From NCBI GenBank assembly GCA_043801855.1, contig JAZDLQ010000103.1, positions 1,834-65,833 of the forward strand: DNA of 64,000 bases, in the 5' to 3' direction. Within the stretch, counting starts at the first letter, position 1. Each line of letters opens with the position of its first letter. This DNA is from an archaeon (lineage in GTDB: Archaea; Nanobdellota; Nanobdellia; Woesearchaeales; GW2011-AR15). Both the position numbers and the translations under genes were made by a program. The notes under the pieces were generated by a model. It ran no database searches. It had not been told where the DNA came from and was given only the letters and a program-made list of their open reading frames with translations. Shown in pieces: positions 18,301 to 47,310 of this stretch.

Positions 18301-21300
18301 AGAACAAGTTAGCGAAACAAATAACAGGATGGAAATTTCTACTGATGAGACAGGAAAACTAGAGCTAGAGCTTTGCGCCATGCCAAATGGCGCTTATATG
18401 ATAGACATCTTTCCATTGCTTGATTTTGCAATGATGGATGAAGGTCCAAAAACAGAAGGCAAGGGAGATAACTTTGGCTTTTTTAGCGATTTCATGGTAG
18501 GTCCAGGAGAAGTAATAATTACAACAAATTTAACATATATGGTAGGTGATACTGTTGTGCTGAATATATCTGCAACTGATGATAACAACAACCCACTTAA
18601 TGGAACACTTGTTGCATCAGAATCAATCCAGGAAATATATAGCCAGAATGGAGAAACAGATATACTCGTGCATCAGAATGATTCCATTGACCTATCATTG
18701 ACGGGCGGAAGCATCCTATTACAATATGTTATCCCGCCAAACGGCACTTATGAAGAGAATGATTCTGTTGTTATGGATATCAGGGCTGCTCCTGTTGACG
18801 GAAGCATTATGCTTGAAGATAACCTAGGGGAAAAATACTCTTTTAACAACCTGCTCTATACAATTAAAAACAGCAGAATTTCAGAGTTAAGTGTTTCACA
18901 AAGTGTTAAGGCAAACAAGCTGATTAATGTATCTGTGAGAACTGAAAACACCAACCGCTACAAAGTGGAATTCGGCATATTTTTCTTAAAAGACAACACT
19001 AATAAGGAAAAGTCCTGGAAAGTTCAGGGCGGCGTGTTCCTTGCAAATGTATCCGGCCAGAATTACAGCGAAGGTGTTTTTCAGGTACTTAGCCCAAAAG
19101 AGCCAGGGACATATTATCTTGCAATTCCAATCTATGCTCTTGGAACACCAATGGATGACATTGCAACAGCCACTGAGCTTTTGATAGCGCCTGTTGAAGT
19201 TACTCTGGATCTTGCAAATGTGTCTGGAATTTTAACTGAGCTTGACGGGTCAACAGCAATCCAATCAGCGCTTGTAAGGATAGGTAAAAAGGAAGTATAC
19301 ACTAATTCAACAGGCGGATTTGAAATGCTTGTTCCAAAAGGCAAAGCAAGTATAGAAATTGAGCGAAAGGTTAACGGCGAATTAAAGCAGACAATGAAGA
19401 CTCTTGAATATGATTTTGTGAATGACACTGTAGTTGATGTTAATTTCTATGGCTTTTTGCTAAATGGCACGCTTCAGCAGACCATATTTAATATCACCAG
19501 CCCAAGTACAGACTTATCAACTATGAAGATAAGGATAAATGTATCTGTAAATAACACTGGCTACCAGAACTTCACAAACTATACTATCAAGGCAGTTGCA
19601 AGCAGCGGAGAAGAGATAAAAATTGAAAGTGTTGAGCCTATTGAAAAAGAGTATGTGTTTTTCAGGAACCTCTATGCAGGCTTTGAGACAGGCAGCTATG
19701 AACTTAATGTTAAATTCAAGGCAGAATACTGGAACAGCTCTTCTTATGTTTTGGTTAATAATATAGAACTGAATTCAACAGTAGGAGCAGTCCTTGAAAA
19801 ATCTTATGAAGTTGAGACATATGCTGTAGCAGGTGATTCTCTGGACAATGATGGAGACTGCTCTGGAAACAGAACCAATGCTCCGGATTGCACACCCCAA
19901 CAAGGAACAATTGGTATTTGTATTGATGAGGAAGAGAATAACAATAAAGATGATGACTGTGACGGAAAGATTGATGAAGATCTTGAAGGCATGAATTATT
20001 TTGAATGGTGCGGAAATGGTTTTTGCGCAGGAAGCGAAGTGTATAATTGCTTTGAAGATTGTGCAACAGGCTATTGCGGAGATAATGTCTGCTCTTCTAC
20101 AGAAACTTATATGTGCGTTGAAGACTGCGGCGGAACAAACTGCACGCCGTTAAACACATGTGCAGGCGATGGTTCAGCATATTTCTGCAACAACTGGGGA
20201 ACCCTTGAGCCTGCAAACTGGTGCCAGTCACAGTGTAATTCTGATAATTGCTGGGCTTGTTCTACTGAAGAGTGCGTAAGCAAGGGATGCACTCTTGGCA
20301 GCGAAGGGCAGAATAGTTGGTGTTATAAATTAGAAGTATGCGGTGATAATTCATGTCCTGCATGCACTTCATTTAGCGCCTGCGATGCAACTTCATCATG
20401 CCAATGGGAAGTTGATTCATACAGCCCAAATGGCGGATGGTGTGAAAGGCCATGGAACTGTGACAATGAATGCGCTGCATGCATGGATCAGTCAAGTTGT
20501 GATGCATCTACTGCAACAATGGGAGAGAGTGGATGTGCTTGGAAAGTTGAAGGTTTGGGTTCATGGTGCCAGTGGAATATGTCTTACGCACCACCTTCCG
20601 GAGGAATGGGCGGTATCATTGAAAACCTATGGGTAGACTCAAATTTCTCAAAAGGAGATTATCAGGCTCTTGAGGATTGGCAATGCTATTCTGACTATTG
20701 CGGCGTAGAAAACCAGGCAGGAAACTACTATATTATGCTATCAATGGGAACAACAAATGTTGATATTAAAGTAAACGGAGCATATTTTGCGACAATAAAT
20801 AATAGCAACGGCAACTGGGGAAAGAAATGGACTAATACAACATATGCATTTTCTAACGGTACATATTTAATCGAAATCTTTGATAAAATCGGGCCTGATT
20901 ACGTTGCATGGAACGTCACATTTGGCGACCAGACTGGAATTGGAAACATCATAATAAATACTATGGGAAACAGCAGCAGTAACAAAATAGCTGATGCATA
21001 CAATGAATCTGGAAAAGAAGTTTGTGATGGAGAGGGTAACTGCTATCTTGTAACTGGAGTAGGAATATCTGGAAATTATTATGTTACTGTTGAACTGTAT
21101 CAGGGAGATAGTATCAATGTAACAGTTAAAGACAGCAACAACAACCAGAATATCTATGCATTGAATAGTATCCCAAGACATGGTTATTACAGTACTCCTG
21201 CAATAAGTTTCCAGAACAACAAACAATACATAATTTACGTTCAGGATAATGTAAATACTGGTGTTGAGCAGTTCTGGGCTGTTGGTGTTGGTTCATGGGT

Positions 21301-21652
21301 TAGTTCGCCATTCAGATATAACTTAATGCCTATATCAGCAAGCCCAATGTGTGTTGAGAACGGCTCTGTTGCAACAGTTGAATATGCAATTACTAATACA
21401 GCATATAAGGATTCATTGTTTAATGTGACTTATGCATTTAATACAACAACCGGGATTAATACTTACGATCAGCTTGTCACATCTGTTGATTATGGGATGC
21501 CTCCAAATTTCTTGGCGACTCAGTTTTACAATCTGAATATTTGGTCTGCTGGTTCCTCATATAAATTAAATGTGACTGTTAGAAACAGCGAAAATCCAAG
21601 CGTAAACCAGAATTATACATGGATTATTAATGCAGAAGCATCTTGTCCTTAG
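12365..21652 (+). CDS. Giant secreted/surface protein (at least 3095 aa): tandem Ig-like/CARDB-like repeats, carboxypeptidase-regulatory-like domain, Cys-rich modules; no membrane anchor
   Basis: One uninterrupted ORF. There are dozens of repeats of about 90-110 aa ending in G-x-Y...V patterns. Cys-rich blocks lie at about 17306-17595 and 19830-20620. It has no signal peptide of its own; the frame is open upstream to 12017 and contiguous with 11492-12016. No C-terminal TM segment. Confidence 0.85.
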   Translation: MKDSSNNEQTIKGYFTVMGLDVSVKLIEKRPYPTGDIAEFDITVKNLETGALLTHNSTLYLVEIESNGKLYDTTTAVIAENSDTTKTSLLTFLVPNFADGNYFLKIKATNGGKVGKGTEFIEISNTEIYAELSDNFGNYRNQFKPGELAKITVSSNVNLSYVNLSVYDKGNNIKSTANATASAAGASITFNVPVAQDGYYAELTIITQSGSSVKRQVWFTVQNYFSFLDVKDLNNNHRFVNQQGSEFLAEINVVDITSGQNVDVSSFTFKINKIVNEETNAEYTNFKATRNTTYTDASTGRVTYNVIPPSLPNGIYRIEYTIVNTLGESFSGNGWFGISAFGVTVSTYDSTGQQKRGFAAGSNINVSVTLSNSYNGTATIVREFFSDVTFNVLNGNGSAVLNASSGQIPSQSGFYGFGVEVENTDGNKGYGEGFFEIKSLNFKSITARSNAKFASNALIIADIVMEKAGELVNETNATLSRLVRQRDGAALSASSLSSLSDSFGRSTINITASSLEKGFYFAELKAVKGTDTTYGGFGFEVVEDKVSITLSDTDRIFSQTENIEISVLVTYQNDTPKNNVTVNLTSFLNFNTWSTVAVNKQATTSTSGVATFSVSAANYNPARYAPVINIPGMANAIVGFGNSEFEVKPFSTTIVFSEGKDYFDTDDTITINVSVTGSVTVSAVVTDKAGNAVNVDYSYSNNVLTLNNDLDPGEYFVEVTITQSTSTVSKTLWFQVISPEIHLQPLPNPNYQETDTINFDYTVFTISSNGWALANATVNITAIKNLWQGTEEEVGVLFNATEEDSYAFDLTSYALEKGDYLLVFEVIGNPNFENTLYFRISKDVSFSASSNVASNNVSINVTTTGFGSPQILLEGYTNFESFTYTLVGGTPVSAANALLSLNGLSNGFYQANIKVTDGAENYYFNTFFDVRVKDVTIDAPGEAFVGEPVQFNITATSAGVFWVIDPFTQNIVQKTQVSPGYTELNVTFNYPTHYIYSSGVDKWEAFRNGEDINIRNVGFDVVWPYMNNRYILTGATNFTFNVSSGKYNTPMTLKLKNHFSGNTKTLSTLMTAPNSDWKEFSYDLDDAVEGLGLSNGPHDVELTLEDGSAQPPKMYFFIDIFPDQYNMWAWTDRWEYRTGEQMTINIDIFDILSGWQKQSPDNVSLESLYDSFRQPVSGSLGWTQGNNFANLTIGSSWVTGNYHAELKLNKSDVLRTVPFDFYVRGNDNLKLFWQQNKWDYSSTETYQISIDARDKGLAAVGVPVTLVGFEMRPENWNDTPTPVEINGAYNFSNNNVTDATGRITFRLNISQAQLGSGGYSARVNVGGQLVWLDFNVRTYQVDAYPEEWEYGITDTIEINARARNIDTFAPINENGNVTIIKIRRHEQGNWMPQDIPLESFGIYDASTDVFNGEALIEMSANQTALALEKAYDFELELLMNLTGSGVSKGYVWFKLSNSDKPAATIVDNTGSEPDAYFAGQNYTLRVTGATSATLRNMWGPQSMNYNKALVNNSGTLQTDFYSPQSPGMYTLEIEIRRSEGFPEFIYQDFQIGGDTQLDLWLEESSVVPEVNFTVGLFLMGKGTDPFCNPEYGCNRPMDNWFGPLGNKTVRLTAIKDLDTFTLINKTNLNIAATTSDFPDWMLVANTPGEGCGGFDTEQNCTDEGCSWIVDGYCEPKFDGCIYGDTNTCQNVHGSDCVWNIDHCQPKMSGNCQYGDSGTCESVDHAADCQWIEQDGHCEGEYDTSQDNQGQFISQGEEPGRATFNLHPTILNLTAGKSYDIIFSYISDDGEETEGKLAIQVEKFHVAISRGEENLAANTLQYVWMKTANLYGAPIANCTISFSALYSAKDYKLVKTLSISGNSSTEGNYIFTYTTPSLPGEYLVEGQVTCTVDSVPVTQKIAYFVDVSAKNLEVDMKTRFKENENIKILITTKDRMGNAIPQRLDINLYHDREDYPAPIYSLGGSDCTVLDANQAWDLRTEQVSETNNRMEISTDETGKLELELCAMPNGAYMIDIFPLLDFAMMDEGPKTEGKGDNFGFFSDFMVGPGEVIITTNLTYMVGDTVVLNISATDDNNNPLNGTLVASESIQEIYSQNGETDILVHQNDSIDLSLTGGSILLQYVIPPNGTYEENDSVVMDIRAAPVDGSIMLEDNLGEKYSFNNLLYTIKNSRISELSVSQSVKANKLINVSVRTENTNRYKVEFGIFFLKDNTNKEKSWKVQGGVFLANVSGQNYSEGVFQVLSPKEPGTYYLAIPIYALGTPMDDIATATELLIAPVEVTLDLANVSGILTELDGSTAIQSALVRIGKKEVYTNSTGGFEMLVPKGKASIEIERKVNGELKQTMKTLEYDFVNDTVVDVNFYGFLLNGTLQQTIFNITSPSTDLSTMKIRINVSVNNTGYQNFTNYTIKAVASSGEEIKIESVEPIEKEYVFFRNLYAGFETGSYELNVKFKAEYWNSSSYVLVNNIELNSTVGAVLEKSYEVETYAVAGDSLDNDGDCSGNRTNAPDCTPQQGTIGICIDEEENNNKDDDCDGKIDEDLEGMNYFEWCGNGFCAGSEVYNCFEDCATGYCGDNVCSSTETYMCVEDCGGTNCTPLNTCAGDGSAYFCNNWGTLEPANWCQSQCNSDNCWACSTEECVSKGCTLGSEGQNSWCYKLEVCGDNSCPACTSFSACDATSSCQWEVDSYSPNGGWCERPWNCDNECAACMDQSSCDASTATMGESGCAWKVEGLGSWCQWNMSYAPPSGGMGGIIENLWVDSNFSKGDYQALEDWQCYSDYCGVENQAGNYYIMLSMGTTNVDIKVNGAYFATINNSNGNWGKKWTNTTYAFSNGTYLIEIFDKIGPDYVAWNVTFGDQTGIGNIIINTMGNSSSNKIADAYNESGKEVCDGEGNCYLVTGVGISGNYYVTVELYQGDSINVTVKDSNNNQNIYALNSIPRHGYYSTPAISFQNNKQYIIYVQDNVNTGVEQFWAVGVGSWVSSPFRYNLMPISASPMCVENGSVATVEYAITNTAYKDSLFNVTYAFNTTTGINTYDQLVTSVDYGMPPNFLATQFYNLNIWSAGSSYKLNVTVRNSENPSVNQNYTWIINAEASCP

Positions 21653-21663: not shown

Positions 21664-22842
21664 ATGAAAAAAATAGTAATAGCCGTTTTTTACTTGTTTG
21701 TTTTAGTTTTTAGCGCATCTGCTGCAACTCTTTCATGCCAGCAGATAAGTGAAACAAGCCAAAGTATTCCTCAATTTTCGAGTAGCACTATTGAGATAAG
21801 ATGCAGCGCGTCAGGAGGAACAGTAAGTAATATTCAAATAACTCCAAATAGCAATCCTTCAACAGGATTAACTATTACAAGCAGCCAGACTATCAGCAGT
21901 TCGATATCTGATCAGTCAAGCAGTACTGCAAAGTGGAGTGCAACCGGCGATTCGCCAAACACTTACACTGTTTCTTATACTGTATCAAGTGATGGCACAA
22001 ACTCATGGAGCGGCGCCTCCACTACAACAGTTAGTGTTCCTTCACCTGCCCAGCTTAGCGTTGAATATGTTCTGCCTCCAAGTATCTTTGCACCGGCAGT
22101 TGAAACGCTTGATTTCCAGATAACAAACATTGGAGGAACAAGTGCCACAAACGTGAAGATGAAATTAAATAATGGCTCTCTTTACACATATCCAACCTCA
22201 ATTGAAGCAGGAGCATCAGCCTCATACAGCTGGACAAATTCAACTGGATTTAATGTATCTGGTGAATACACAACTTATGTTTATATTGCAGATACATTGC
22301 ATGACAGCGTAACAGCAACAGTTTTGACAGGAGAGGAAGGCATAAATGCAACAAGCGGCTGGAGCCTTATAAGTTATCCAAAGCAGCCTGATAATACAAG
22401 CGTTGTCCATGCAGTTGAAGACATATCTTCTATCTTTACTATAATTTATAGATATGATGGTGGCGTCACATGGAAATCTTATGACGGCCCTGGTGGCTCT
22501 CCTGACACATTAACAACAATATCCTCTGCAAAAGGTTATTGGCTTAAAACAACTCAGTCAACACAGCTGAATTTTACAGGAACAGAGGTATCAAGTATGC
22601 AGATAAATCTAACAAGCGGCTGGAATCTAATAGGATATCCGAAATCTACAACTACTAATTTAACAACTACAATGGCAGATATACTTAACAATGTAGATAC
22701 TATTTTCAGGTTTGATGGCGGTGTCACATGGAAATCTTATGACGGGCCTGGTGGTTCTCCCGACACATTGACAACACTTACTCCTGGAAAAGGTTATTAT
22801 GTAAAAATGAATAATGCAGATACTTTATCAGTGATAAACTAA
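21664..22842 (+). CDS. Secreted CARDB-like protein with two C-terminal GWNLIGYP...PGKGYYVK repeats (cassette 1, gene A)
   Basis: I prefer the ATG at 21664 (MKKIVIAVFYLFVLVFSASA signal peptide), which is preceded by GAGGTGA 6 nt upstream; the track start 21643 is TTG. A CARDB-like segment (LDFQITNIGGTSATNVKMKL) is followed by two repeats of about 75 aa. Confidence 0.8.
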   Translation: MKKIVIAVFYLFVLVFSASAATLSCQQISETSQSIPQFSSSTIEIRCSASGGTVSNIQITPNSNPSTGLTITSSQTISSSISDQSSSTAKWSATGDSPNTYTVSYTVSSDGTNSWSGASTTTVSVPSPAQLSVEYVLPPSIFAPAVETLDFQITNIGGTSATNVKMKLNNGSLYTYPTSIEAGASASYSWTNSTGFNVSGEYTTYVYIADTLHDSVTATVLTGEEGINATSGWSLISYPKQPDNTSVVHAVEDISSIFTIIYRYDGGVTWKSYDGPGGSPDTLTTISSAKGYWLKTTQSTQLNFTGTEVSSMQINLTSGWNLIGYPKSTTTNLTTTMADILNNVDTIFRFDGGVTWKSYDGPGGSPDTLTTLTPGKGYYVKMNNADTLSVIN

Positions 22843-23275
22843 TAGGTATACAGTAAGAAAAAGGATATAAAAAAATGAAAATCAAATACGGCTTAAACTT
22901 TTTATCATATCTTGTAACAGGCTTATTGATAATGGTCCTTGTATCAGGGAACATTCAGACTTCATTATCAGATTCTGGAACAGGCGTCAGAGTCATAACC
23001 AGTGGATTGCTTGTGTCAAATGCAAATCTTACTGTTTTGATATTTACTGATCCTGATGGAGGAACTCCTGTATACAATGAGACTTTTGTAAATTCAATAA
23101 TGAATGGCAGCTGGGGGGTAATGCTTGGTGAAAACCCTTCTATTCCGCTTAATCTGGAATTCAACAGGAAATACTATAAGGATTATCTTATTAACGATGA
23201 AAATGTAAGTTTTACAAATCTGACTGGCTCAACTGTTGACAGGCAGTTTTTCTACAGTCCAATGGGTGAAATTGG
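22800..23275. repeat. Copy 1 of a near-identical segment of about 480 bp, spanning the gene A 3' end, the intergenic spacer and the gene B 5' end
   Basis: Aligns with 25503-25979 at a constant offset of 2703/2704 nt. It includes AAAATGAATAATGC...TCAGTGATAAACTAA...GTAAGAAAAAGGATATAAAAAAATGAAAATCAAATACGGCTTAAACTTTTTATCATATCTTGTAACAGGCTTATTGATAATG. Roughly nine in ten positions are identical by eye. Confidence 0.85.
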
Positions 23276-24776
23276 TCGTGATTCAAATTCTTCAGGACTT
23301 CATTCAACCGCAATAGGGTATGAGAATAACGCTTCAGGCGATTATTCAACAACTATAGGCAGGAAAAATCTGGCGAATGCAAGCTATGCTTTTGCAGCAG
23401 GTTATTTAAGCAACGCAACAGGTTATGCATCCTCTTCAATCGGCTGGACAGCACGAGCTTCAGGAATTGCATCATTTGCAGCAGGAATGAACACAGTTTC
23501 TTCTGGAATTGGAGCCTCTTCTTTAGGCTCAGATACTATTGCAAACGGGCATTATTCAGTAGCTTCAGGTTATTTTGCACAGGCTTCAGGTTTGGCATCA
23601 GAAGCATTCGGGTATTATGCAAAAGCAACAGGAGATTATTCAACAGCAGTTGGCAACTTTGCAAAATCACATGGGATTTACTCTTTTGCATGGGGTGGAT
23701 CCAATTGTTCAGTTGCCTCTTCTTCATGCAATAATACTGCACAGAATGCTTTTGCTGTCTATGGTAGCGTCTGTGTTTCAAATGCGACAAATGCGTGCCA
23801 GGCCAAAGGAGATGGAACAATTAGCGCAGAACAAATATGCTTAAATGGAAACTGCAGGACAATCTGGTCAACTCAGGGTGCAAATTATTCATGGGATACT
23901 GTTTCAAATGTGACTGCTGTTGCACTTGGAGTAAATACAAATGCAAGCGGGACTAATTCAACTGCACTGGGCATGGCAACAAATGCAGAAGGGCTTGGCT
24001 CATTTGCAGCAGGGAAAGAAACACATGCATCAGGGATTGCAGCAAGTGCAATGGGTTTAAACTGCACAGCATCAGGATGGTATTCAACAGCATTAGGTAA
24101 GGATTCAAATGCAGTAGCCTTTGGCTCTCTTGCGGCAGGGTATGGCGCAACTGCAGGCTCATACTGGGCTGACTATGCAGCTGTTGCCCTTGGAATGTAT
24201 ACACAGGCGCATGGTCCATATACAACTGCGATGGGCTATAATACAAGAGCAACAGGCAGTGCAGCAACAGTAATGGGAAAAGACACTCTTGCGACAGGGG
24301 ATTATTCAACTGCTGCAGGATACAATACGTATGCAATATGGGAATCCTCTTTTGCTATTGGTGAAGGCACAATTGCAGGCTCTTTGTATAAAGGAAAAGC
24401 ATTGGCAACAGGTTATTTCACTCATGCAGCAGGCAATATTTCAACAGCACTGGGCAGCTATGCTAAATCTTATGCTGATAATTCATTTGCATGGGGAGGA
24501 AGCAACTGCACAACAACAGCATCATTTTGTAATGCAACAAAGAAGAACACATTTGCAGTATTTGGGAATTTATGTGTGGCCAATGCAACAACAGTATGCC
24601 CTGAAATAGCCGATGGTACAGCATATTTTAGCGATGCAATGCAATTGCAGCCAAGACTAAATCCACCATCTGCATCTGCAATAGGCAAAATTTATTATGA
24701 TTCAGATCTTAATAAAATATGTTTCTATAATTCGTCATCATGGGTGTCAACTGATGGAGAGACAGTGTGCAGCTAA
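22875..24776 (+). CDS. Hep_Hag/YadA-head-like repeat protein, two tandem repeat-plus-cap modules (cassette 1, gene B)
   Basis: 633 aa. An N-terminal hydrophobic segment (MKIKYGLNFLSYLVTGLLIMVLVSG) and a conserved domain of about 110 aa are followed by 14-residue repeats of the type S-x-A-x-G-x-x-x-x-A-S-G-x-x. The module SFAWGGSNC...FAV(Y/F)G..CV.NAT..C occurs twice. C-terminal tail: GKIYYDSDLNKICFYNSSSWV. Confidence 0.8.
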   Translation: MKIKYGLNFLSYLVTGLLIMVLVSGNIQTSLSDSGTGVRVITSGLLVSNANLTVLIFTDPDGGTPVYNETFVNSIMNGSWGVMLGENPSIPLNLEFNRKYYKDYLINDENVSFTNLTGSTVDRQFFYSPMGEIGRDSNSSGLHSTAIGYENNASGDYSTTIGRKNLANASYAFAAGYLSNATGYASSSIGWTARASGIASFAAGMNTVSSGIGASSLGSDTIANGHYSVASGYFAQASGLASEAFGYYAKATGDYSTAVGNFAKSHGIYSFAWGGSNCSVASSSCNNTAQNAFAVYGSVCVSNATNACQAKGDGTISAEQICLNGNCRTIWSTQGANYSWDTVSNVTAVALGVNTNASGTNSTALGMATNAEGLGSFAAGKETHASGIAASAMGLNCTASGWYSTALGKDSNAVAFGSLAAGYGATAGSYWADYAAVALGMYTQAHGPYTTAMGYNTRATGSAATVMGKDTLATGDYSTAAGYNTYAIWESSFAIGEGTIAGSLYKGKALATGYFTHAAGNISTALGSYAKSYADNSFAWGGSNCTTTASFCNATKKNTFAVFGNLCVANATTVCPEIADGTAYFSDAMQLQPRLNPPSASAIGKIYYDSDLNKICFYNSSSWVSTDGETVCS

Positions 24777-24777: not shown

Positions 24778-25545
24778 ATGAGACAGGTTATTCAAAATAC
24801 AGCATTGCAGATTTTCTTTTTATCATTGTTGCTAATTATTTCACTAAGGACTGTTTATGGAAATTCAACATCATATAGTATTGCTTTTTTAGAAAACGGC
24901 ATTGCAGATTCAGTGGCAGCAAGCAGTGCAAGCTATTCTGTTGAGTCTGCAAACAACAATGCTGAGCCTGCTGGAAACATGAGTTCAGCAAGCTTATATG
25001 GTGAATTTGGAAAAAAACAGCTCATTCAGGAATCAAATAAAATTATTGCTCTGGCTTCTGGCTGGAATTTAATCAGTTTTCCGCTGGGATTAAAAAATGA
25101 GTCCATTACAAATGCAGTATCTGGCATCTCACCATCATTAAGCATTGTTTACAGGTATGACGGCGGAGTTACCTGGAAAAGCTATGATGGCGCTGGCGGT
25201 TCTCCTGATACACTCTCATCAATTGCACCAGGAAAAGGTTATTGGGTTAAAATGACAAATTCAGAAGACCTTGAAAACATAGGTTATGTGCTGGATTATG
25301 TATCCATTCCGCTTTCATCTGGCTGGAATTTAATTGGCTATCCAAAATCAGCAAGCAGAAGCCTGACTGAAGTTTTTTCAAATATTACTGATAATCTGGC
25401 GATAGTTTATAGATATGACGGAGGAGTTATATGGAAAAGCTATGATGGTCCAGGAGGTTCACCAGATACATTGACAACCTTAAGCCCTGGAAAAGGATAT
25501 TATGTGAAAATGAATAATGCTGATACTTTATCAGTGATAAACTAA
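24778..25545 (+). CDS. Secreted protein with two GWNLI(S/G)(F/Y)P...PGKGY(W/Y)VKM repeats (cassette 2, gene A)
   Basis: The ATG at 24778 lies just after the stop of the preceding gene and gives MRQVIQNTALQIFFLSLLLIISLRTVYG. The track start 24697 would overlap the upstream gene by 80 nt. The C-terminal 16 residues (GKGYYVKMNNADTLSVIN) are identical to those of 21664-22842. Confidence 0.8.
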   Translation: MRQVIQNTALQIFFLSLLLIISLRTVYGNSTSYSIAFLENGIADSVAASSASYSVESANNNAEPAGNMSSASLYGEFGKKQLIQESNKIIALASGWNLISFPLGLKNESITNAVSGISPSLSIVYRYDGGVTWKSYDGAGGSPDTLSSIAPGKGYWVKMTNSEDLENIGYVLDYVSIPLSSGWNLIGYPKSASRSLTEVFSNITDNLAIVYRYDGGVIWKSYDGPGGSPDTLTTLSPGKGYYVKMNNADTLSVIN

Positions 25546-25979
25546 CAGGTTATACTGTAAGAAAAAGGATATAAAAAAATGAAAATCAAATACGGCTTAA
25601 ACTTTTTATCATATCTTGTAACAGGCTTATTGATAATGTCCTTTGTATCAGGGAACATTCAGACTTCATTATCAGATTCTGGAACAGGCGTCAGAACAAT
25701 AAGCAGCGGGCAACTTGTGTCGAATACAAACCTTACTGTTTTAATATTTACTAATCCTGATGGAGGAACTCCAGTATACAATGAAACTTTTGTAAATTCA
25801 ATAATGAATGGCAGCTGGGGGGTAATGCTTGGTGAAAACCCTTCTATCCCATTGTATCTTGAGTTCAATAGAAAATACTACAAGGATTATATGATAAATA
25901 ATGAGAACGTAAGCTTCACAAACCTTAGCGGCTCAACAGTTGACAGGCAATTCTTCTATTCTCCTATGGGTGAGTGGGG
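25503..25979. repeat. Copy 2 of the near-identical segment of about 480 bp (see 22800-23275)
   Basis: Direct comparison of the two stretches; the intergenic spacer differs by a single 1-nt indel and a few substitutions. Confidence 0.85.
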
Positions 25980-27186
25980 ACGCGGGTCCAATGCCAGTGG
26001 TATCTATTCAGCAGCATTAGGTTATTATACTGTCGCCAGCGGTGGCTATGCAACCGCTATGGGTAATAGAAGCACAGCTAGTGGAATTTATTCAACAGCG
26101 ATGGGTAGTAATACAACAGCTAGCGCAGCAAGTTCAACAGCCATGGGCGGCGATACTATAGCTAGCGGTAATGTTTCAACAGCAATGGGCGGTTCAACTA
26201 CAGCGAGCGGCTTTCTTTCAACAGCCATGGGTTATTTTACTACAGCCAGTGGTTATGCTTCAACTGCGATGGGAGTTAGGACTAATGCCACAGGATATTA
26301 TTCAGTTGCAATGGGTTATGGAAGCAGTTCTAGCAGCTATGCTTCAATTGCAGTAGGATTTCAATCTAATGCTACAGGATATTATTCAACAGCAATGGGT
26401 GAAGTTACTGCAGCTAGCGGTTATGCTTCAACCACAATGGGCAGTAACACCAGAGCTAGTATGCCGTTCTCAACTGCAATGGGCTCTAATACTATCGCTA
26501 GCGGTGATTATTCAACTGCCATGGGATATGGGACTGAGGCAAGTGGAGATTATTCAACTACAGTTGGCTATAGAACAAATGCAAGCGGTCAATATTCCAC
26601 TGCGTTGGGATATGAAACTATTGCATCCGGATATGATTCTATTGCATTGGGCTATAAAACATTAGCCAACGAAAGTTACTCTTTCGCAATGGGAGATAGA
26701 ACCAATGCCACAGGAATTAATTCCATTGCAATGGGCACGGTAACTCAAGCAAGCGGATCTTACTCTACTGCCATTGGTTTTATATCTACTGCCAGCGGAC
26801 AGTCATCAACAGCTATTGGCAGGTATGTACATGCAAAAGGAGGATATTCAATTGCAATGGGATACGGTGCAAATGCAACAGCTGACTATTCATTTGCATG
26901 GGGAGGTCCTTCGTGTTATAATTTACCATCGAACTGCAGCAATACCAGAGAGGGTCTATTTGCAGTATATGGAGGCATGTGCATCGCAGATGCTAAAACT
27001 GTATGTCCTGACATTGATGATGGAGTAGCATTTGTTGATAAGGCATTCTTGTTAAATCCAAGAGCTACACCGCCTACAGGTGCTATGGAAGGAATGATGT
27101 ATTTTGATTCAGACATCCACAAGCCCTGCTATTTTAATTCAACTAATTGGGTGAGGTTTGAAAATTCAAGCTTAGTCTGTAGTTAA
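25579..27186 (+). CDS. Hep_Hag/YadA-head-like repeat protein (cassette 2, gene B)
   Basis: 535 aa. The first ~130 residues are nearly identical to those of 22875-24776. About 30 consecutive 14-residue repeats follow (ASG.YSTAMG..T.), then SFAWGGPSC...FAVYGGMCIADAKTVC and the tail GMMYFDSDIHKPCYFNSTNWV. Confidence 0.85.
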   Translation: MKIKYGLNFLSYLVTGLLIMSFVSGNIQTSLSDSGTGVRTISSGQLVSNTNLTVLIFTNPDGGTPVYNETFVNSIMNGSWGVMLGENPSIPLYLEFNRKYYKDYMINNENVSFTNLSGSTVDRQFFYSPMGEWGRGSNASGIYSAALGYYTVASGGYATAMGNRSTASGIYSTAMGSNTTASAASSTAMGGDTIASGNVSTAMGGSTTASGFLSTAMGYFTTASGYASTAMGVRTNATGYYSVAMGYGSSSSSYASIAVGFQSNATGYYSTAMGEVTAASGYASTTMGSNTRASMPFSTAMGSNTIASGDYSTAMGYGTEASGDYSTTVGYRTNASGQYSTALGYETIASGYDSIALGYKTLANESYSFAMGDRTNATGINSIAMGTVTQASGSYSTAIGFISTASGQSSTAIGRYVHAKGGYSIAMGYGANATADYSFAWGGPSCYNLPSNCSNTREGLFAVYGGMCIADAKTVCPDIDDGVAFVDKAFLLNPRATPPTGAMEGMMYFDSDIHKPCYFNSTNWVRFENSSLVCS

Positions 27187-27255: not shown

Positions 27256-27993
27256 ATGAAAACCAATTCAATAGTTGTTTTAATACTATTTTGTATTATT
27301 TTTACTTCTTATGTTAATGCAATTCCGCAAATTCCAACAGTATATTACGGTGTTGTGAGCGAAGATGGAGGCCCATTACCTGGGAAGGAAGTTATTGTCA
27401 AGGATTCATTAGGAAACAATGTATATAGCACTGATTTGATTAGTGATGCAGACGGGATATACAAGGCCAATGTCTTATGGGATGACTCTGAAACAATAGA
27501 AGATGAAGGCGTTAGCGAAGGAGAAAAAATATCCTTTTATATTAATGGGAATAAAATCAAGGATTTGACTGTTGGGGCAAAAGGAGCTTTTATAGAAAAT
27601 GATTTGGCAATTACAGGCGAGGAAATCAGTTCTCCTTTGTTTGAGCGTCCAAAAAATAGAAATGGCGAAATATCTCAGAATGATGCTGATGAAGAAGGAG
27701 TTGCAGGAAATCAAATAGACGACACCGGGCAAGCATCTAATCCAACTCAGCCAGATAATGTTGATTTGTTGCAGCCGCCTGAATCAGAAGGAAGCGGACA
27801 AAAGACTACTGATAATAGCAATTCCAATGTAAATGCCATAATATCAGAGAAGGAGTTGGAAAAAATTGCAGAAGACAATAAAAAAGTGGGTCAATTAGGA
27901 AATATCTTGGTTATAGCAGGAATTGTTATTGTATTGTTAATTGCTATCATTTATGTAATAGGCATATTTTCAAAAAAGAGGGCGGAAAAATGA
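27256..27993 (+). CDS. Secreted beta-sandwich protein with acidic linker and C-terminal TM anchor
   Basis: 245 aa: signal peptide, the domain IPTVYYGVVSEDGGPLPGKEVIVKD...GEKISFYINGNKI, an acidic low-complexity linker, then the TM helix ILVIAGIVIVLLIAIIYVIGIF and a KKRAEK tail. Confidence 0.7.
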   Translation: MKTNSIVVLILFCIIFTSYVNAIPQIPTVYYGVVSEDGGPLPGKEVIVKDSLGNNVYSTDLISDADGIYKANVLWDDSETIEDEGVSEGEKISFYINGNKIKDLTVGAKGAFIENDLAITGEEISSPLFERPKNRNGEISQNDADEEGVAGNQIDDTGQASNPTQPDNVDLLQPPESEGSGQKTTDNSNSNVNAIISEKELEKIAEDNKKVGQLGNILVIAGIVIVLLIAIIYVIGIFSKKRAEK

Positions 27994-30900
27994 GTAAGAT
28001 AACTAAAAAATTGTTGATATCTGTTTTTGCAGCATTAATGTGTGTGTTGTTTGCATTTTATGCAACAGCAGCAGGGCCAGGCAGCCCAACAAACTACAAC
28101 GGTTATGCAACCTGTAACGGATATGAAATTCCTGCAGGTGCCATTATATGGATGGAATCAGAAGGCAGAAATGTCTCAACTGACGGCTGGACAGATACAA
28201 CCAATTTTACTTATTATGATCCTACTCAAGGAACTCCTACAGATCGGTATTTTCTTCATCTTCAGTGGAGAGATATTGGCGACCCTCTTTTATATTATGG
28301 AGCGGATGATGGAGATCCTGTAACTATTTATGTCAACGGGATAAATGCATCTCTTTTTACTGCTGATGATTCTCAATCATCTGTTTTATATAACCTGTCT
28401 TTTTCAGATAGTGTTTCTCCTTCAAATGTATCAACACTTAGTGCACAAGAGCTTGCCGTGCAAAACCAGTCTGTTATTAACATCTCCTTTTGGGGGACAC
28501 GGGATAATCTCTGGACTAATTTATATTATCTCGTATATAGAGGAACAAGTTCATCTGTTACATTTGCCGATGGAACAAGAATAAATGCAACTCTTTTTAA
28601 TGGAACAGGTAGAATAACTATCAATGATACACTCCCAGCAAGAGGACAAACGTATTATTATGCAGTATATGCAAATGATACCTCTGGCAATCTTGGCGCA
28701 AGGGCAATATCAAATGCAGTGTCCACAACAAACCTTGTTCCTGCTCAAGTTACAGGAGGCGCTGCAAGCAGCAACAACAACAGCCTGAATATCACATGGA
28801 CTGCAGTAACAACGCACAATAACGGAACAGGAATTGGAGGAGATTTAGTTGGATATCATGTTTATAAAAATGTAAGTGATGTCTGGGTTCTTACAACTAC
28901 TACAACAAATACTTTCTATTACAACAACAGCCTGACAAACAACCAGCCATACCAGTTCAAGGTTGCAGCTTATGATTTGGATTCAAACGAAGGCCAGAAT
29001 TCTTCTGTTATATCAGGAACGCCAAGCGAGAGGCCGACAATAACAATGACAAGCCCGGCAAATTATCTATTTATCCGCTCTGGTGTAAGCTTGAATTTTT
29101 CAGTAACTTCTGGTGCTCTTCAAAATGTCTGGTATTCTCCTAACGGCGGTGCAACAAATTCTACTTTTGTCTCTCCTTATGGAATTGATACAACAGCATG
29201 GACAAACACTCAAAGCTATATTGTTGTAGTTGGAGCAAATAACACAAATGGCCAAAGCACAGTTGAAACATATAATGTAACAATTGATAATAATAAGCCA
29301 ACAGTCACAAACCTTGCAGTAAATGATTCTGATTCTATTGTTTCGTCAGGCGTTTCAATAAGGATTAATGTAACTTCAATTGATTTATCTCCATTTACTT
29401 CAATTCTAGTTGGAAACTCTACTATGGTAACTATGGCTCAGCTATCTGGAAACCATTATACAGCAATTACAACAGCATCTACACTTGGATGCCCAGGTAC
29501 AAACCAAGGTTGCAGAGTCATTGTTAATGCAACAGATTATGCTGGCAATTCAAATGATACTATTGCCCTATTTTTTACTGTTGATAATATTGCACCAACT
29601 GTTTCAAATCCATATGTAGTAGGCGGCTTAATCAACACAACTGATGATCTAGTCAGAGAAAACGATACAATCTCGGTTAATGTAACAGTTACAGACTCAA
29701 ATGCAATTTCATCAGTTTCAGTAAACAGCCAGCCAATGAATAGTGTAGGAAACAATAAATACAATTATACTGGAAGCGCGCTTGCTCTTTGCGGTGCATC
29801 TGATGGCACATGTACACTGACTTTTGTTGCAACAGATGTTGTTGGTAATATTAACAGCACAACAACAAAGGCAATCACAGTTGATGATTCTGCGCCAACT
29901 ATATCCTCTGTAACTATTTCAGATAATTACATTAGCAATAACACGAATGTTACTGTTACTGTTGCAGTTACCGATTCATTAACTGCAGTGCATAATGTAT
30001 CAGTTGAAGGAGTATTACTGACAAGCCAGGGAGGCGGTGTCTGGAATGGAACGCTTAATTTAACTGATGAAACAGTGGACGCAGTTGATGTTGCTGCATT
30101 TGATATTGTTGGAAACTCGGATACTGACAGCGCAACAACTTATACTATGGATAATACTGCCCCCTACATTAATTCAATTATTTTATCTGATTATTATGTC
30201 AGGAGCGGAACACCAGTTACAGTTACTATAAATGTAACAGATAATGCAATTAATACTGTGACAGCTGAGGGTGTAACACTCAATAACAGTGGTGATATAT
30301 GGTCGGGAATTATTACTTTGGCGCTGGGAGGGTCTCCAATTAATGTTGTTGCAATAGATAATGCAAGCAACCAAAGGACAAATAATTCAATAGGATTTTC
30401 AACAGATGATATCTCTCCTTACTATAACTCAATTGCTTTGTCTGATTCTTACGTCAGGCCAGGAGCAACAGTTACAATTACAGCAAATATTACTGAGAAT
30501 CATATGACAAGTGTCACTGCTGATGGAACATCACTGTCAAACAGCACAGCAGATATATGGACAGGAAGCATAACTCTTGGAGATGCAAGCGGTTACGTAA
30601 CTTTAGTTGCAACTGATGATGCAGGAAATACGAATACTAGTGTTTTTACAACATATACAATTGATTCTACAGCGCCAACATTTTCAATAACAACTCCAGA
30701 AGCTGACGGGATATATACAAATGCAGACGGAAACATTACTTTTAGCTTCATTGTTTATGACGCAAATATATCAAAAGTCAATGTATCTATAGATAATGGG
30801 CTTTATATGTATGGCAACACTACAAATGGAACACATATAGTGCAATTTACAGGGCTTTTAGCTGGCGAGCATTCGGCAGTATTTAGCGCAAGTGATGAAG

Positions 30901-33144: not shown

Positions 33145-33849
33145 ATGAATAAAAAAAAGATGGCGATTTTATCAATTATTTCTCTTTTTATATTTAATAT
33201 TATTTCAATTGTCTTGGGTAAATCTAACATATATTTAGGAATAGCGCTTATTTTTTGCATATTATATCTTATTGGAATTGTCTTTAAAAGAACAGTTATT
33301 AAAAATAAATTTGGAGCATTTTGGCTTTTAGCTTATGCCTATTTGCTGATATTTATACCTATTCTATTATCTTATTTTAAAATAATAAAATCTAATGAAT
33401 TCTTGTTTTTGTTTTTCATATTTTTTAGTGTTATTGCTTATGAACTTGAAATTGATCCAAGGTATTCAATAGTAATGGCTCTTTTAATGCTTTGGCTTGC
33501 CCCATTTTTAATGTCATTTGGTATGAGCGCATTAGCAGAAGAGACAGCAATAATTGTTTACTATTTTTTAATATGCGCTCTGGCATTGCAGGTAATTCAA
33601 TTCAGGCAAAATTCAAAAATCAATATTGACCTTGATAAAATCAAGCTTATATTTATACGAAAGAATAATCTTTATTATGCGGTTTTCTGGCTGATCTTTT
33701 ATTTTATCGCAGGATATTTTTTGCTAAGCCCTATATCATTAGCTCTTAGCCTGTATTTTAGCACAGTGTTTGGATTTTTTTATGGCGCAAGGCTTTTGTT
33801 GAAACATGATACTAAAAAAAGCATTTGGAAAGGACTCGACACTTATTAA
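33145..33849 (+). CDS. Hypothetical polytopic membrane protein
   Basis: 234 aa with about seven hydrophobic helices and no recognisable motif. It is the first gene of the same-strand glycan cluster. Confidence 0.6.
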   Translation: MNKKKMAILSIISLFIFNIISIVLGKSNIYLGIALIFCILYLIGIVFKRTVIKNKFGAFWLLAYAYLLIFIPILLSYFKIIKSNEFLFLFFIFFSVIAYELEIDPRYSIVMALLMLWLAPFLMSFGMSALAEETAIIVYYFLICALALQVIQFRQNSKINIDLDKIKLIFIRKNNLYYAVFWLIFYFIAGYFLLSPISLALSLYFSTVFGFFYGARLLLKHDTKKSIWKGLDTY

Positions 33850-35068: not shown

Positions 35069-35795
35069 AAAGTTATCAGTGATTGTTCCTGTTTTTAAGG
35101 GAGGAAAATTTATTGAAGAAAATCTTTCTATTATGAAAAAAAGCTTTAGTGAGCAATTTGCGAATACTGAAATAATTGCTGTGATTGATGGTTCAACTGA
35201 CGACTCGTTATCGCAGGCTAAAAAAGTTGAAGGAATAAAAGTTGTCGGCTATACCAAGAATATGGGAAAAGGCTATGCCCTAAAATATGGGTTTAAGCAT
35301 GCAACTGGCGATTTTATCACATTCATTGATTGCGATATGAACCTGCATCCAAAGCAGCTTAGAAATTTTGTTCCTTATTTGTCAACCGCAGATATTGTTA
35401 TTGGAAGCAAAAGGCATCCTTTTTCCAAAGTGAATTATCCACTTACTAGAAAAATACTAAGCAAGGGATTTCAGCTTTATTCTTGGCTTGTTTTAGGCGT
35501 CAGCCTTCGCGATACACAATCTGGCTTAAAAATAATGAAACGAGAGGCTTTAGAAGTATTGCTGCCTCTTGTTGTCGTCAAAAGATATGCATTTGACTTA
35601 GAGCTAATGTTCTTAGCGCAAATGCATGGATTTAGGACTGTTGAAGCCCCAATACTCCTTAATTATGACAGGGAAATGCCATCAACTGTTGATTTAAAAG
35701 CAGCGTACGGGATGTTTATGGATGTTCTTGCCATCAGGTACCGGTTCTCCTTCACTAAATATTATCAAAAGCAATATCACAATCAATTCAAATGA
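35058..35795 (+). CDS. Family 2 glycosyltransferase (dolichyl-phosphate-sugar synthase-like)
   Basis: LSVIVPVFKGGKFIEE, VIDGSTDDS, FIDCDM and the SGLKIMKRE segment. I place the start at the TTG at 35058; the track ATG at 34992 would overlap the flippase by 77 nt. The start is uncertain. Confidence 0.8.
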   Translation: MRNKKLSVIVPVFKGGKFIEENLSIMKKSFSEQFANTEIIAVIDGSTDDSLSQAKKVEGIKVVGYTKNMGKGYALKYGFKHATGDFITFIDCDMNLHPKQLRNFVPYLSTADIVIGSKRHPFSKVNYPLTRKILSKGFQLYSWLVLGVSLRDTQSGLKIMKREALEVLLPLVVVKRYAFDLELMFLAQMHGFRTVEAPILLNYDREMPSTVDLKAAYGMFMDVLAIRYRFSFTKYYQKQYHNQFK

Positions 35796-38181: not shown

Positions 38182-38209
38182 TGTTAAAGTTCCTTTTCTG
38201 GAAGCCATT

Positions 38210-39135: not shown

Positions 39136-39282
39136 ATATTACATATTTGTAAGACGTATTATATAAATGTATTGTTTTTTGGAACTTCCCTAAATAAATT
39201 AACGAAAAACATTGTTTTTATATTTTTGAGTAAAATATAATAATAAGTAACGTTATTTTTTTCTTATTAGGGGGAATATTGA

Positions 39283-40031: not shown

Positions 40032-40037
40032 AAGAAG

Positions 40038-40877: not shown

Positions 40878-40878
40878 A

Positions 40879-41568: not shown

Positions 41569-41569
41569 A

Positions 41570-45809: not shown

Positions 45810-45855
45810 AAGATTTAATAAGGTTCAGTCAAGTTATCTAAAAATTTAAAAAAAA

Positions 45856-47301: not shown

Positions 47302-47310
47302 GTTGCGTTA

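Follow-up and report, generated by a model that had tools for sequence, protein, structure and literature searches.

Two ORFs encoding proteins with YadA-head repeats, here termed B1 and B2, lie in the analyzed window (i.e., the whole stretch of 64,000 nucleotides considered), and the coordinates previously assigned to both were found to hold (Table 1). In each case, the stop codon directly follows the terminal knob. The B1-A2-B2 block is embedded in an operon encoding giant surface proteins. This operon is conserved, and comparison with its syntenic counterpart in a related MAG shows the block to be an insertion. A1 also belongs to the conserved surface operon, outside the fibre pair, while the gene following B2 encodes an unrelated TM protein. 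The 300-nt direct repeat, which covers the spacer between A and B genes as well as the 5' end of B, is the junction of an A-B cassette duplication. A glycosylation island was also noted near B1 and B2 in the window. Among sequencing runs, none containing the locus was found. The archaeal context proposed in the earlier note was borne out by the ArgRS encoded at positions 1157-2854, which is 65% identical to that of a Woesearchaeota MAG and whose top matches are nearly all from DPANN archaea, assigning the window to a DPANN archaeon of Woesearchaeota type.

Table 1. Genes and features of the B1-A2-B2 region (positions are those of the window).
Feature	Position	Strand	Description
A1, 392 aa	21664..22842	+	Signal peptide, CARDB-like region, two GWNLIGYP domains
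300-nt direct repeat	22847..23146	+	93% identical to 25551-25850
B1, 633 aa	22875..24776	+	Signal peptide, N-domain, beta-roll 1, Cys cap 1, CxxxxC hairpin, beta-roll 2, Cys cap 2, knob
B1 predicted signal peptide, Sec-type	22875..22949	+	aa 1-25, MKIK / hydrophobic core / VSG↓N; inferred from the leaders of 41 family members
B1 N-domain, predicted Ig-like beta-sandwich	22950..23276	+	aa 26-134; alignment and its HMM; AF2 model
B1 beta-roll module 1	23277..23696	+	10 in-register 14-residue YadA-type repeats, aa 135-274
B1 cap 1 and hairpin	23682..23879	+	SFAWGG, Cys 278/285/300/308; then ICLNGNCRTIW, Cys 322/327
B1 beta-roll module 2	23907..24497	+	~14 repeats with register shifts, aa 345-541
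B1 cap 2	24483..24614	+	Cys 545/552/567/575
B1 terminal knob	24615..24773	+	LQPR..PP....GKIYYDSDLNKICFYNSSSWV....VCS; Cys 616/632
A2, 255 aa, partner-type gene	24778..25545	+	1 nt after B1; signal peptide, three S-x-x-Y motifs, two GWNLIGYP...GKGYWVK domains
B2, 535 aa	25579..27186	+	Signal peptide, N-domain, 22-turn beta-roll, Cys cap, knob
B2 beta-roll	25981..26904	+	22 in-register 14-residue repeats, aa 135-442; pLDDT ~98
B2 cap	26890..27021	+	SFAWGG; Cys 446/453/468/476; low model confidence
B2 terminal knob	27022..27183	+	LNPRATPP....EGMMYFDSDIHKPCYFNSTNWV.....VCS; Cys 517/534
245-aa protein	27256..27993	+	Signal peptide and C-terminal TM helix; conserved operon; lacks the S-x-x-Y motif

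That B1 and B2 contain genuine YadA-head (Hep_Hag) repeats, as had been claimed, was supported in agreement by Pfam profile, PDB sequence and fold matches. Both proteins significantly matched the YadA_head profile (PF05658; cut-off of 25 bits), with E = 2.7e-27 over six stretches in B1 and E = 1.2e-57 over 17 stretches in B2, results far from the absence of a match. The repeats of B2, which include the peptide originally cited as an example (residues 309-351), run without a single indel; identity at a lag of 14 residues is 0.52, as compared to 0.05-0.07 at lags of 13 and 15, and 14 copies spaced by 42 nt are seen at the DNA level. A sequence match in the PDB was provided by the BpaC head (1.7e-24). 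The AF2 model, with a pLDDT of ~98 over the B2 repeats, gave the same protein as best Foldseek match (7o23; E = 2e-12, 38% identity over 315 columns), followed by CbpF, UspA1, AtaA, BoaA, EibD and YadA. As modelled, the repeats of B1 and B2 fold into a left-handed parallel beta-roll of the LbR_YadA-like superfamily. By analogy with autotransporter heads and Peptidase_S74 fibres, this shaft would be trimeric. Assuming a rise of ~0.48 nm per turn, the 22-turn roll of B2 would measure roughly 10 nm. The Peptidase_S74 trimerisation chaperone domain (PF13884) was absent from both B1 and B2 when these were compared to Pfam.

B2 contains one copy of the four-Cys cap described downstream of the repeats, and B1 contains two. 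In B1, the cap HMM matched ORF positions 273-341 and 540-639, which confirms that the repeats-plus-cap module is duplicated internally. The novelty attributed to this C-terminal module applies to part of it. The four-Cys staple, together with the two Cys residues of the knob, is rare, with a dozen or so clusters bearing the cap when 1.84 billion representative proteins are considered, and no relative being detected when GTDB species genomes were scanned for a pattern derived from the cap profile; a word-index search with the cap alone also returned no match, since the 113-aa query was too short. On the other hand, neither SFAWG, which corresponds to the final turn of the beta-roll, nor the knob is novel. 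The G.IYYDS...W motif of the knob is widespread, being repeated or terminal in 863 representative proteins, one multi-copy carrier of which contains Pfam DUF5907/DUF2793, and the knob matches phrog_20787, a 'virion structural protein.' Because the cap region was modelled by AF2 at a pLDDT below 50, the disulfide pattern is drawn from conservation only. The cap is presumably stapled by disulfides, with one more in the knob; in B2, the predicted pairs are 446-453, 468-476 and 517-534. The final 100 residues as a whole are poorly modelled by AF2.

Neither a beta-barrel anchor nor a coiled-coil stalk was found in B1 or B2, as the earlier note had maintained. No match at E <= 1 to YadA_stalk (PF05662), YadA_anchor (PF03895) or ESPR was obtained from Pfam for B1, B2 or the flanking genes, nor was a neck or anchor detected at E <= 1 in NCBIfam for B1 and B2. 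As a positive control, a real autotransporter found among the matches (P0057) was considered with the same library and thresholds; stalk, anchor (E = 3.4e-16) and ESPR were all detected. Likewise, the AF2 model of B2 includes no long helix downstream of the repeats. As such, the reading of B1 and B2 as conventional type Vc trimeric autotransporters, with an anchor that was overlooked or is encoded separately, is effectively refuted, despite the strong similarity of the head repeats to those of BpaC, YadA, EibD and AtaA: Anchor, stalk, neck and ESPR are missing while the control performs as expected, both ORFs terminate right after the knob, and the host is a DPANN archaeon, a group not known to possess an outer membrane or BAM machinery. 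Since the host genome is archaeal, display of B1 and B2 must rely on a non-autotransporter mechanism. Archaeosortase sorting was ruled out, as no sorting signal (PGF-CTERM and similar) was matched at E <= 1 in NCBIfam and the leader is the sole hydrophobic segment of either protein.

The N-terminal hydrophobic segment of B1 and B2 was indeed present. In all 41 family members considered, a non-conserved leader of n-h-c organization ends just before the conserved N-domain; small residues occupy positions -3 and -1 exactly at the N-domain boundary in 29 of these, and in most of the others three residues later (VSA↓F type). Judged by this pattern, the leader reads as a Sec signal peptide and not as a prepilin signal, and the mature protein would be expected to begin with NIQTSLSD. 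The suggestion of a class III (prepilin-like) signal, which would make B1 and B2 pilin-like subunits of an archaeal type IV pilus-like filament, draws on the Gly that follows a short basic stretch in the leader (MKIKYG-LNFLSY...). Yet, Tyr rather than Lys or Arg is found at position -2, the hydrophobic core is not conserved among the 41 homologues, a G/A site precedes the core in only one of them, and the signal peptidase I -3/-1 site lies at, or no more than three residues from, the N-domain boundary, leaving this explanation very improbable. Thus, of the earlier proposal that a different anchoring mechanism is used, the general notion stands, given the archaeal host and the lack of an anchor, whereas the prepilin-type route fails.

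The conserved N-domain of ~110 aa reported for both proteins was confirmed, being 90% identical in B1 and B2; a second BLASTP alignment, comprising the repeats and the C-terminus, showed 36% identity, in line with the polarity proposed for these fibres. An HMM built from the N-domain alignment matched positions 26-141 of both proteins with E ~1e-60 and assigned the domain to 31 genome loci, nearly all from DPANN archaea, where it is present in one copy, always directly after the leader, and precedes diverse shafts. Often, several such genes are found in one genome (e.g., L099/L100; L102/L103/L105), and they lie next to housekeeping genes such as that encoding IleRS. The N-domain was modelled by AF2 with a pLDDT of 79, and a fold search of the PDB with this model yielded no significant match, only generic Ig-like sandwiches (best E = 0.086). 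The HMM also matched the N-termini of bacterial fibre proteins, namely, P0048 (4e-12) and P0111 (1.5e-6). The Ig-like N-domain defines a new, DPANN-wide family with interchangeable shafts.

Examination of the neighborhoods of N-domain genes points to a further regularity, namely that such genes usually precede what may be a partner gene, in whose product a signal peptide is followed by three S-x-x-Y motifs and then by a TM helix. Downstream sequence sufficed for this comparison at 18 loci. At 13 of these, a partner was present, in most cases within -16 to +13 nt of the stop codon of the fibre gene; at the other five, none was detected nearby. An HMM of the partner motif yielded 15 matches, one per locus, in 2,000 ORFs around N-domain genes, including six outside the training set. 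The motif, with two invariant columns, is too degenerate for a collection-wide pattern scan; instead, a 420-kb negative control served, and no matches were obtained in its 2,456 ORFs. Every complete partner contains a TM segment, and cap-bearing relatives P0006 and P0204 are likewise adjacent to a partner gene. In the window, A2 carries the motif at residues 28-81 (nt 24859-25020; partner-motif HMM E = 7.8e-16) yet lacks a TM helix. Its C-terminal half is 63% identical to A1, and it is the only one of 80 A-family proteins to contain the S-x-x-Y motif. A2 is a new form of the partner, in which the TM helix is replaced by two domains of unknown function; no Pfam family was found for either the partner motif region or the GWNLIGYP domains.

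When full-length proteins were used as queries, 6,853 matches were obtained, mostly bacterial 'tail fiber domain-containing' proteins that pair YadA_head with Peptidase_S74, C1q, Peptidase_G2 or CUB. One relative, P0002, combines the same N-domain and head with Peptidase_S74 (7.5e-17). Structure matches at E <= 1e-3 included 43 viral proteins, among them phage tail fibres and giant-virus proteins. The view that an anchorless YadA head is unusual was hence not upheld, such heads being frequently encountered in bacteria, phages and giant viruses. The presence of LbR_Ice_bind in one bacterial match led to an antifreeze or ice-binding role being considered; no further support was found, and this candidate was set aside. 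Because the beta-roll and knob are found in genuine phage tail spikes and fibres and in PHROG families, and because the B1-A2-B2 block is inserted relative to the syntenic operon of the related MAG, it could be argued that B1 and B2 serve as tail fibres in an archaeal virus, integrated or defective, or that their genes were captured from a virus in the recent past. However, no capsid, portal, terminase, integrase or other phage genes were found among the scanned ORFs of the window, and A1, A2 and the 245-aa neighbor have no PHROG match. Moreover, B1 and B2 carry Sec signal peptides, normally missing from virion proteins, and the distribution of N-domain genes described above, i.e., over 31 mostly DPANN loci, often several per genome and near housekeeping genes, also speaks against a viral origin, which is accordingly considered improbable.

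The explanation we favor, with moderate confidence, is that B1 and B2 are Sec-secreted adhesive surface fibres with a layout resembling that of phage tail fibres, docked through the N-domain on a downstream partner. Following cleavage of the leader, the Ig-like N-domain would form the proximal docking end and the YadA-type left-handed beta-roll the shaft, which comprises a single module in B2 but two modules in B1. The last turn of the shaft would extend into the four-Cys stapled cap, and the C-terminal knob, similar to a tail-fibre tip, would serve as distal binding end. The mature fibre would be held on the cell non-covalently, with the N-domain docking on the product of the next downstream gene. 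In most genomes, this product is the membrane-anchored partner with its signal peptide and triple S-x-x-Y motif; at the present locus, the chimeric A2 would act as partner, with the pair of GWNLIGYP domains providing attachment. Adhesion to a host cell or surface would be the role of the fibre. B1 and B2 are also probably N-glycosylated, with sequons being ~2-fold enriched over shuffled sequences, an enrichment for which the repeat consensus N-A-S/T-G may partly account.

Judged from gene order, the partner protein is a candidate tether for the N-domain. Since partner adjacency is kept while shafts differ, the functional link would be to the part that is shared, namely, the N-domain. At the same time, because A2 lacks a TM helix and B2 precedes an unrelated TM protein, tethering at this locus calls for the additional assumption concerning the GWNLIGYP domains. 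It is, as such, conceivable, if rather unlikely, that B1 and B2 bind the S-layer, envelope glycans or the giant neighboring proteins directly, or are released, with the downstream gene merely being co-expressed. The absence of a TM helix in A2 and of a motif-containing partner directly after B2, the five partnerless loci and the location of the block in a conserved giant-surface-protein operon are all in line with direct attachment. By contrast, the tight and near-universal adjacency of a membrane-anchored partner to N-domain genes argues for docking on that partner.

DPANN archaea live attached to other cells, and the molecules mediating this contact are largely unknown. The locus considered here offers a concrete candidate, in the form of a secreted fibre family in which the base is conserved and both shafts and tips can be exchanged, and the conserved membrane-protein partner could explain how anchorless proteins are retained on the archaeal cell. 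Extending the docking scheme further, it is tentatively proposed that Woese-, Pace- and Nanoarchaeota possess a two-component fibre system, in which an Ig-like domain docks on a type I membrane protein with three S-x-x-Y motifs, that serves as a host-attachment organelle, and in which the Cys cap provides a chaperone-independent end to the beta-roll; we regard this as possible rather than likely. If true, interchangeable shafts (YadA beta-rolls, GNVGIGT-type fibres and others) would be mounted on a common dock, and each of the three extracellular S-x-x-Y motifs could accommodate one chain of a trimer. More generally, the YadA beta-roll is a fibre building block used in bacteria, phages, giant viruses and archaea, and no hallmark of autotransport. 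Given how many systems share it, a 'YadA_head' match does not justify annotating a protein as an autotransporter when the genome is archaeal or monoderm.

Comparison with known systems places B1 and B2 among several groups of fibres. With YadA-like trimeric autotransporter heads (BpaC, 7o23; YadA, 1p9h), they share the 14-residue repeat, the PF05658 match and the fold. Trimeric autotransporters, however, have an ESPR, neck, coiled-coil stalk and beta-barrel anchor, all lacking in B1 and B2, which instead belong to an archaeal host without an outer membrane, have a last turn bearing a Cys staple, and are proposed to be of reversed polarity, with the conserved end N-terminal and the variable tip C-terminal. 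The anchorless YadA-head fibres common in Bacteroidota likewise comprise a signal peptide and a beta-roll, with repeats 50-58% identical to those of B1 and B2, and the N-terminal beta-sandwich of one of these bacterial fibres (P0048) is distantly homologous to the N-domain, as reflected in the HMM match given above. B1 and B2 differ in that their N-domain subfamily is DPANN-specific and comes with a dedicated downstream partner gene and, relative to the bacterial S74 fibres, in ending in a Cys cap and Cys knob rather than in an S74 chaperone. The DUF5907 (PF19264) and DUF2793 (PF10983) repeats ('P..P..G.hYYN...L..YNG..W') share the sequence motif of the knob; B1 and B2 fall below these Pfam models and have just one copy, located at the terminus and bearing a conserved pair of Cys residues.

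In archaea, a literature search for YadA or Hep_Hag in archaeal or DPANN species yielded no study, save for one annotation remark in a nanohaloarchaeon. In a DPANN archaeon from another DPANN phylum, a surface protein of 1,693 aa annotated as resembling a trimeric autotransporter adhesin is encoded in a large surface-protein operon with LamG neighbors; compared by description only, it shares with B1 and B2 the surface-operon setting and, according to its authors, a host-recognition context. Among phages, the tail spike of Flavobacterium phage vB_FspM_immuto (QQO92325) and the tail fiber of Verrucomicrobia phage P8625 contain LbR_YadA-like repeats as in B1 and B2. The C-terminus of the phage tail spike is organized as in B1 and B2, with a beta-roll, an irregular last turn, a linker and a '...LE.R.T.P...EGM...YYNG.SW' knob. 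A signal peptide, the DPANN N-domain and cysteines, all features of B1 and B2, are missing from these phage spikes and fibres.

Pfam scanning of the products of the two neighboring ORFs B1 and B2 revealed YadA_head repeats in both, covering six stretches in B1 (E = 2.7e-27) and 17 in B2 (E = 1.2e-57), far over the gathering score of 25 bits. In B2, residues 135-442 comprise 22 consecutive 14-residue repeats with zero indels, self-identity being 0.52 at a lag of 14 as compared to 0.05-0.07 at lags of 13 and 15; in the repeat DNA, 14 copies follow a 42-nt spacing. B1 has two repeat blocks, one with 10 repeats in register (residues 135-274) and another, of lower regularity, with some 14 (residues 345-541). 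When solved structures were searched by sequence, the repeats matched the BpaC head (7o23; 1.7e-24), as well as CbpF, YadA, BoaA, EibD and AtaA. The AlphaFold2 model of B2 (mean pLDDT 84; ~98 over the repeats) yielded the left-handed parallel beta-roll of BpaC as best Foldseek match (E = 2e-12; 38% identity; TM 0.70 on target), followed by CbpF, UspA1, AtaA, BoaA, EibD and YadA.

The remaining parts of an autotransporter were not detected. No stalk, neck, anchor or ESPR model matched B1 or B2 at E <= 1 in the Pfam scan, while all of ESPR, stalk and anchor were found by the same library in P0057, a real autotransporter among the database matches that served as positive control. NCBIfam scanning gave no more than partial hits, all to head regions (Ata, EmaA, BimA and YadA), and no sorting signal, and neither protein contains a transmembrane (TM) helix other than the leader, the N-terminal hydrophobic segment. 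Because a profile of the cap, the SFAWGG four-cysteine segment following the repeats, matches B1 twice and B2 once, the internal duplication of B1 is real. As such, the feature described in the earlier note, namely YadA-head repeats in both ORFs, lack of anchor and stalk, and a tandem repeats-plus-cap module in B1, is real, although that first reading was only partly right.

Members of the surface-protein operon containing B1 and B2, with positions in the window
Feature	Position	Strand	Description
Giant protein	12365-21652		3,095 aa
A1	21664-22842		GWNLIGYP-domain protein, between giant protein and B1
B1	22875-24776	+	ORF, 633 aa
A2	24778-25545		GWNLIGYP-domain protein, between B1 and B2
B2	25579-27186	+	ORF, 535 aa
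245-aa protein	27256-27993		C-terminal TM helix; follows B2
Ig-rich protein	27990-33041		1,683 aa

The archaeal-looking context noted earlier was confirmed, since the ArgRS encoded in the window (1157-2854, minus strand) shares 65% identity with that of a Woesearchaeota MAG and its best matches are almost all from Woese-, Pace- or Nanoarchaeota; the window therefore comes from a DPANN archaeon, the contig to which it belongs being 70.9 kb long. ArgRS sequences of Fibrobacter/Fibrobacteraceae (L036, L041, L044, L045; 45-46% identity) rank amid the DPANN matches, ahead of those of other bacteria, which suggests inter-domain transfer of this ArgRS type. MAGs labeled 'uncultured Methanosarcinales archaeon' (L002, L004, L006, L017, L090, L093) contain ArgRS and N-domain genes closest to those of Woese- or Nanoarchaeota and are probably mislabeled.

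B1 and B2 lie within a surface-protein operon (table), after which comes an island of glycosylation and radical-SAM genes. In a related Nanoarchaeota MAG, the gene order is giant protein, A, 236-aa protein and large protein, with no B gene, the latter two proteins each being 39% identical to the 245-aa and 1,683-aa proteins of the window, respectively. As the operon is thus maintained without B, B1-A2-B2 is an insertion or duplication inside it. Over a 300-nt stretch that runs from the intergenic spacer into the 5' end of B, the two copies share 93% identity, and the N-domains (the conserved ~110-aa N-terminal domains) of B1 and B2 are 90% identical, as compared to 36% in a second BLASTP alignment covering repeats and C-terminus. 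The operon (12365-33041 in the window) is conserved in Nanoarchaeota MAG loci L113/L114 (JAHJUZ010000195) and L115 (JAHIZZ010000026), the layout being a giant protein of 3,000-4,000 aa, an A-type protein and then two proteins that each have a C-terminal TM helix, first one of ~240 aa and next a large, Ig-rich one. The window's giant protein shows only sub-threshold Pfam matches (PITM1-3, MG4, BIg21) and includes long Cys-rich stretches at 18600-20100 (~aa 2080-2560; e.g., CGGFDTEQNCTDEGCSW) with repeated C-x-C-x motifs.

The island (33145-50875) is dense in glycosylation and modification genes, encoding a flippase-like Polysacc_synt protein, several GT2 enzymes, a methyltransferase-GT4 fusion, an asparagine synthase, and three B12-binding and one SPASM radical SAM enzymes. 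Beyond it are found two very large proteins (1,468 and 1,041 aa; 50899-58430, minus strand) with N-terminal GT-C AftD-like glycosyltransferase domains, then a CBM_4_9 protein (58813-59805). A Peptidase_M78 (IrrE-like) gene (59890-61128) adjoins a G+C trough (0.26 at 60001-62000 vs ~0.35 elsewhere), such that 59890-62000 may be a mobile or foreign segment.

The earlier note had raised the possibility of a class III (prepilin-like) leader. Among the leaders of 41 family members, most are 15-31 residues long. They begin with basic residues, continue into a hydrophobic core that is not conserved and have small residues at -3/-1, which fall exactly at the N-domain boundary in 29 of the 41 and three residues later in most others (VSA|F type). 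A [KR][GA] site before the core occurs in a single member. Together, these traits point to a leader of the Sec/signal peptidase I type, with predicted cleavage in B1 and B2 at VSG|NIQTSLSD, and the prepilin idea was rejected.

The N-domain, whose model (pLDDT 79) is an Ig-like beta-sandwich lacking any significant neighbor in the PDB, defines a family of its own. Its profile identified 31 loci in 185,579 species genomes, all labeled as DPANN archaea or plain 'archaeon' except for four 'Methanosarcinales'-labeled MAGs and one Patescibacteria MAG. It is always present in single copy immediately after the leader, what follows being YadA repeats (L088, L100), GNVGIGT-type fibre motifs, S74-like coiled coils or huge Ig-rich proteins; several N-domain proteins terminate in the knob, the G.IYYDS...W module that also ends B1 and B2. 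Search matches spanning the whole protein amount to a handful: P0001 contains three repeat-plus-cap modules and then the knob; P0006 has the cap and a different ending; P0008, N-domain and repeats; P0050, the knob without the cap; and P0002 and P0037 share N-domain and head with B1/B2, P0002 additionally carrying Peptidase_S74. The N-domain HMM also gives weak matches in two bacterial fibre proteins, at the N-termini of P0048 (4e-12) and P0111 (1.5e-6). The DPANN N-domain is thus a divergent offshoot of the sandwich with which anchorless fibres of bacteria begin.

A candidate tether was found in gene order. N-domain genes are typically followed, at an offset of -16 to +13 nt in most cases, by a partner gene for which no Pfam model exists. 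Its product combines a signal peptide with three S-x-x-Y-x-[VLF] motifs spaced over ~55 residues, a linker that is Gly-rich or acidic, and a TM helix that often lies at the C-terminus and has a basic tail. An HMM built from nine sequences of the motif region gave 15 matches, one per locus, when run on 2,000 ORFs of the window plus the N-domain loci, six of these matches being outside the training set; a control set of 2,456 ORFs, drawn from 420 kb of unrelated and in many cases DPANN loci, gave zero. The partner was found in 13 of 18 loci with enough downstream sequence, and every copy not cut by a contig end contains a TM segment. Downstream of the cap-bearing relatives P0006 and P0204, a partner-type gene begins after 8-10 nt. 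In place of the simple C-terminal anchor, some partners (L106 7801-9483; L107, L112) have three TM helices plus a PRC-barrel domain on the cytoplasmic side, hinting at a link of the fibre to something inside the cell.

In the window, the partner motif lies in A2 (E = 7.8e-16), 1 nt downstream of B1; A2 has no TM helix, and the gene after B2, that of the 245-aa TM protein, lacks the motif. The C-terminal two-thirds of A2 consist of two GWNLIGYP...GKGYWVK domains that share 63% identity with their A1 counterparts. Since A2 alone among 80 A-family proteins bears the motif, it is a chimera. The tandem ~85-aa domains (SGWNLIGYP ... YRYDGGVTWKSYDGPGGSPDTL ... GKGYWVK) occupy the C-terminal halves of A1 (22340-22842) and A2 (25045-25545) and have no Pfam model; their eighty homologues, mostly metagenomic, include Nanoarchaeota and one Methanophagales protein, with fusions to cohesin, CarboxypepD_reg, fn3 and other modules. 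Judging from gene order, the shared N-domain would dock on the extracellular motif module of the partner, the three S-x-x-Y motifs may serve three fibre chains, and A2 would act in the window genome as an adaptor attached via its GWNLIGYP domains.

The Cys-capped C-terminal module, previously deemed novel, proved so only in part. 'SFAWG' is the final turn of the beta-roll, and of 863 matches to a cap-plus-knob profile among 1.84 billion representatives, most involve the knob half alone, often many times per giant protein. The cap half is matched by only about a dozen, always following YadA repeats, and is thus rare; its pattern is absent from a scan of GTDB species genomes. Fourteen cap copies from ten proteins align with four invariant cysteines (SF.WG....C....C.......FA..GGLCV......C.....G). 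Since AlphaFold2 models the cap poorly (pLDDT < 50, residues 465-493), Cys pairing was inferred, the putative disulfides in B2 being 446-453, 468-476 and 517-534. The knob ends 26 recovered proteins, in a Cys (...KPCYYNS..W.......CS) or Cys-free version, corresponds to Pfam DUF5907/DUF2793 repeats in one multi-copy carrier and matches phrog_20787 ('virion structural protein') at 1.5e-4 to 4e-4. In Flavobacterium phage vB_FspM_immuto, the tail spike shows the same C-terminal order of repeats, irregular last turn, linker and '...LEVRTTTPT.PVEGM...YYYNGTSW', but without cysteines. The C-terminal module is therefore a tail-fibre tip, of which only the putative disulfide staples are lineage-specific. 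A two-cysteine hairpin, 'IC.NG.C(K/R)T.W', joins successive modules (B1 aa 316-335; P0001, P0008), follows a GNVGIGT...L.V.G fibre motif in relatives and appears to be a recurrent inter-module connector.

YadA heads without an anchor, viewed as unusual in the earlier note, are common in bacteria and viruses, and hence not surprising in general. Full-length protein searches gave 6,853 matches, mostly bacterial and named 'tail fiber domain-containing', anchorless and combining YadA_head with Peptidase_S74, C1q, Peptidase_G2 or CUB. Forty-three predicted viral structures match the B2 model at E <= 1e-3, including Caudovirales 'LbR_YadA-like' and S74 proteins as well as Klosneuvirus and Pithovirus proteins, and ten phage records have similar repeats in genes with tail spike or tail fiber annotations. 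The unusual aspects here are the host, an archaeon, and the particular end modules. Full-text literature searches found no studies on YadA-head proteins in archaea, the nearest being a nanohaloarchaeal surface operon (PMC10266531) in which an annotation remark names a 'trimeric autotransporter adhesin-like protein'. Of genuine interest are the N-domain family specific to DPANN archaea, the membrane partner conserved with it and the rare cap with its Cys staple.

B1 and B2 belong to the already known kind of anchorless YadA-type beta-roll fibres and, by analogy with autotransporter heads and S74-carrying relatives, are likely trimeric. The conserved base and divergent shaft and tip, the varying number of repeat-plus-cap modules (one in B2 and P0204, two in B1, three in P0001), the ~2-fold enrichment of sequons (22 and 18 vs 10.7 +/- 2.8 and 8.2 +/- 2.4 in shuffles) and a neighborhood of giant surface proteins and glycosylation genes fit an adhesive fibre whose C-terminus is distal and determines specificity, an arrangement shared with phage fibres and the reverse of that in autotransporters.
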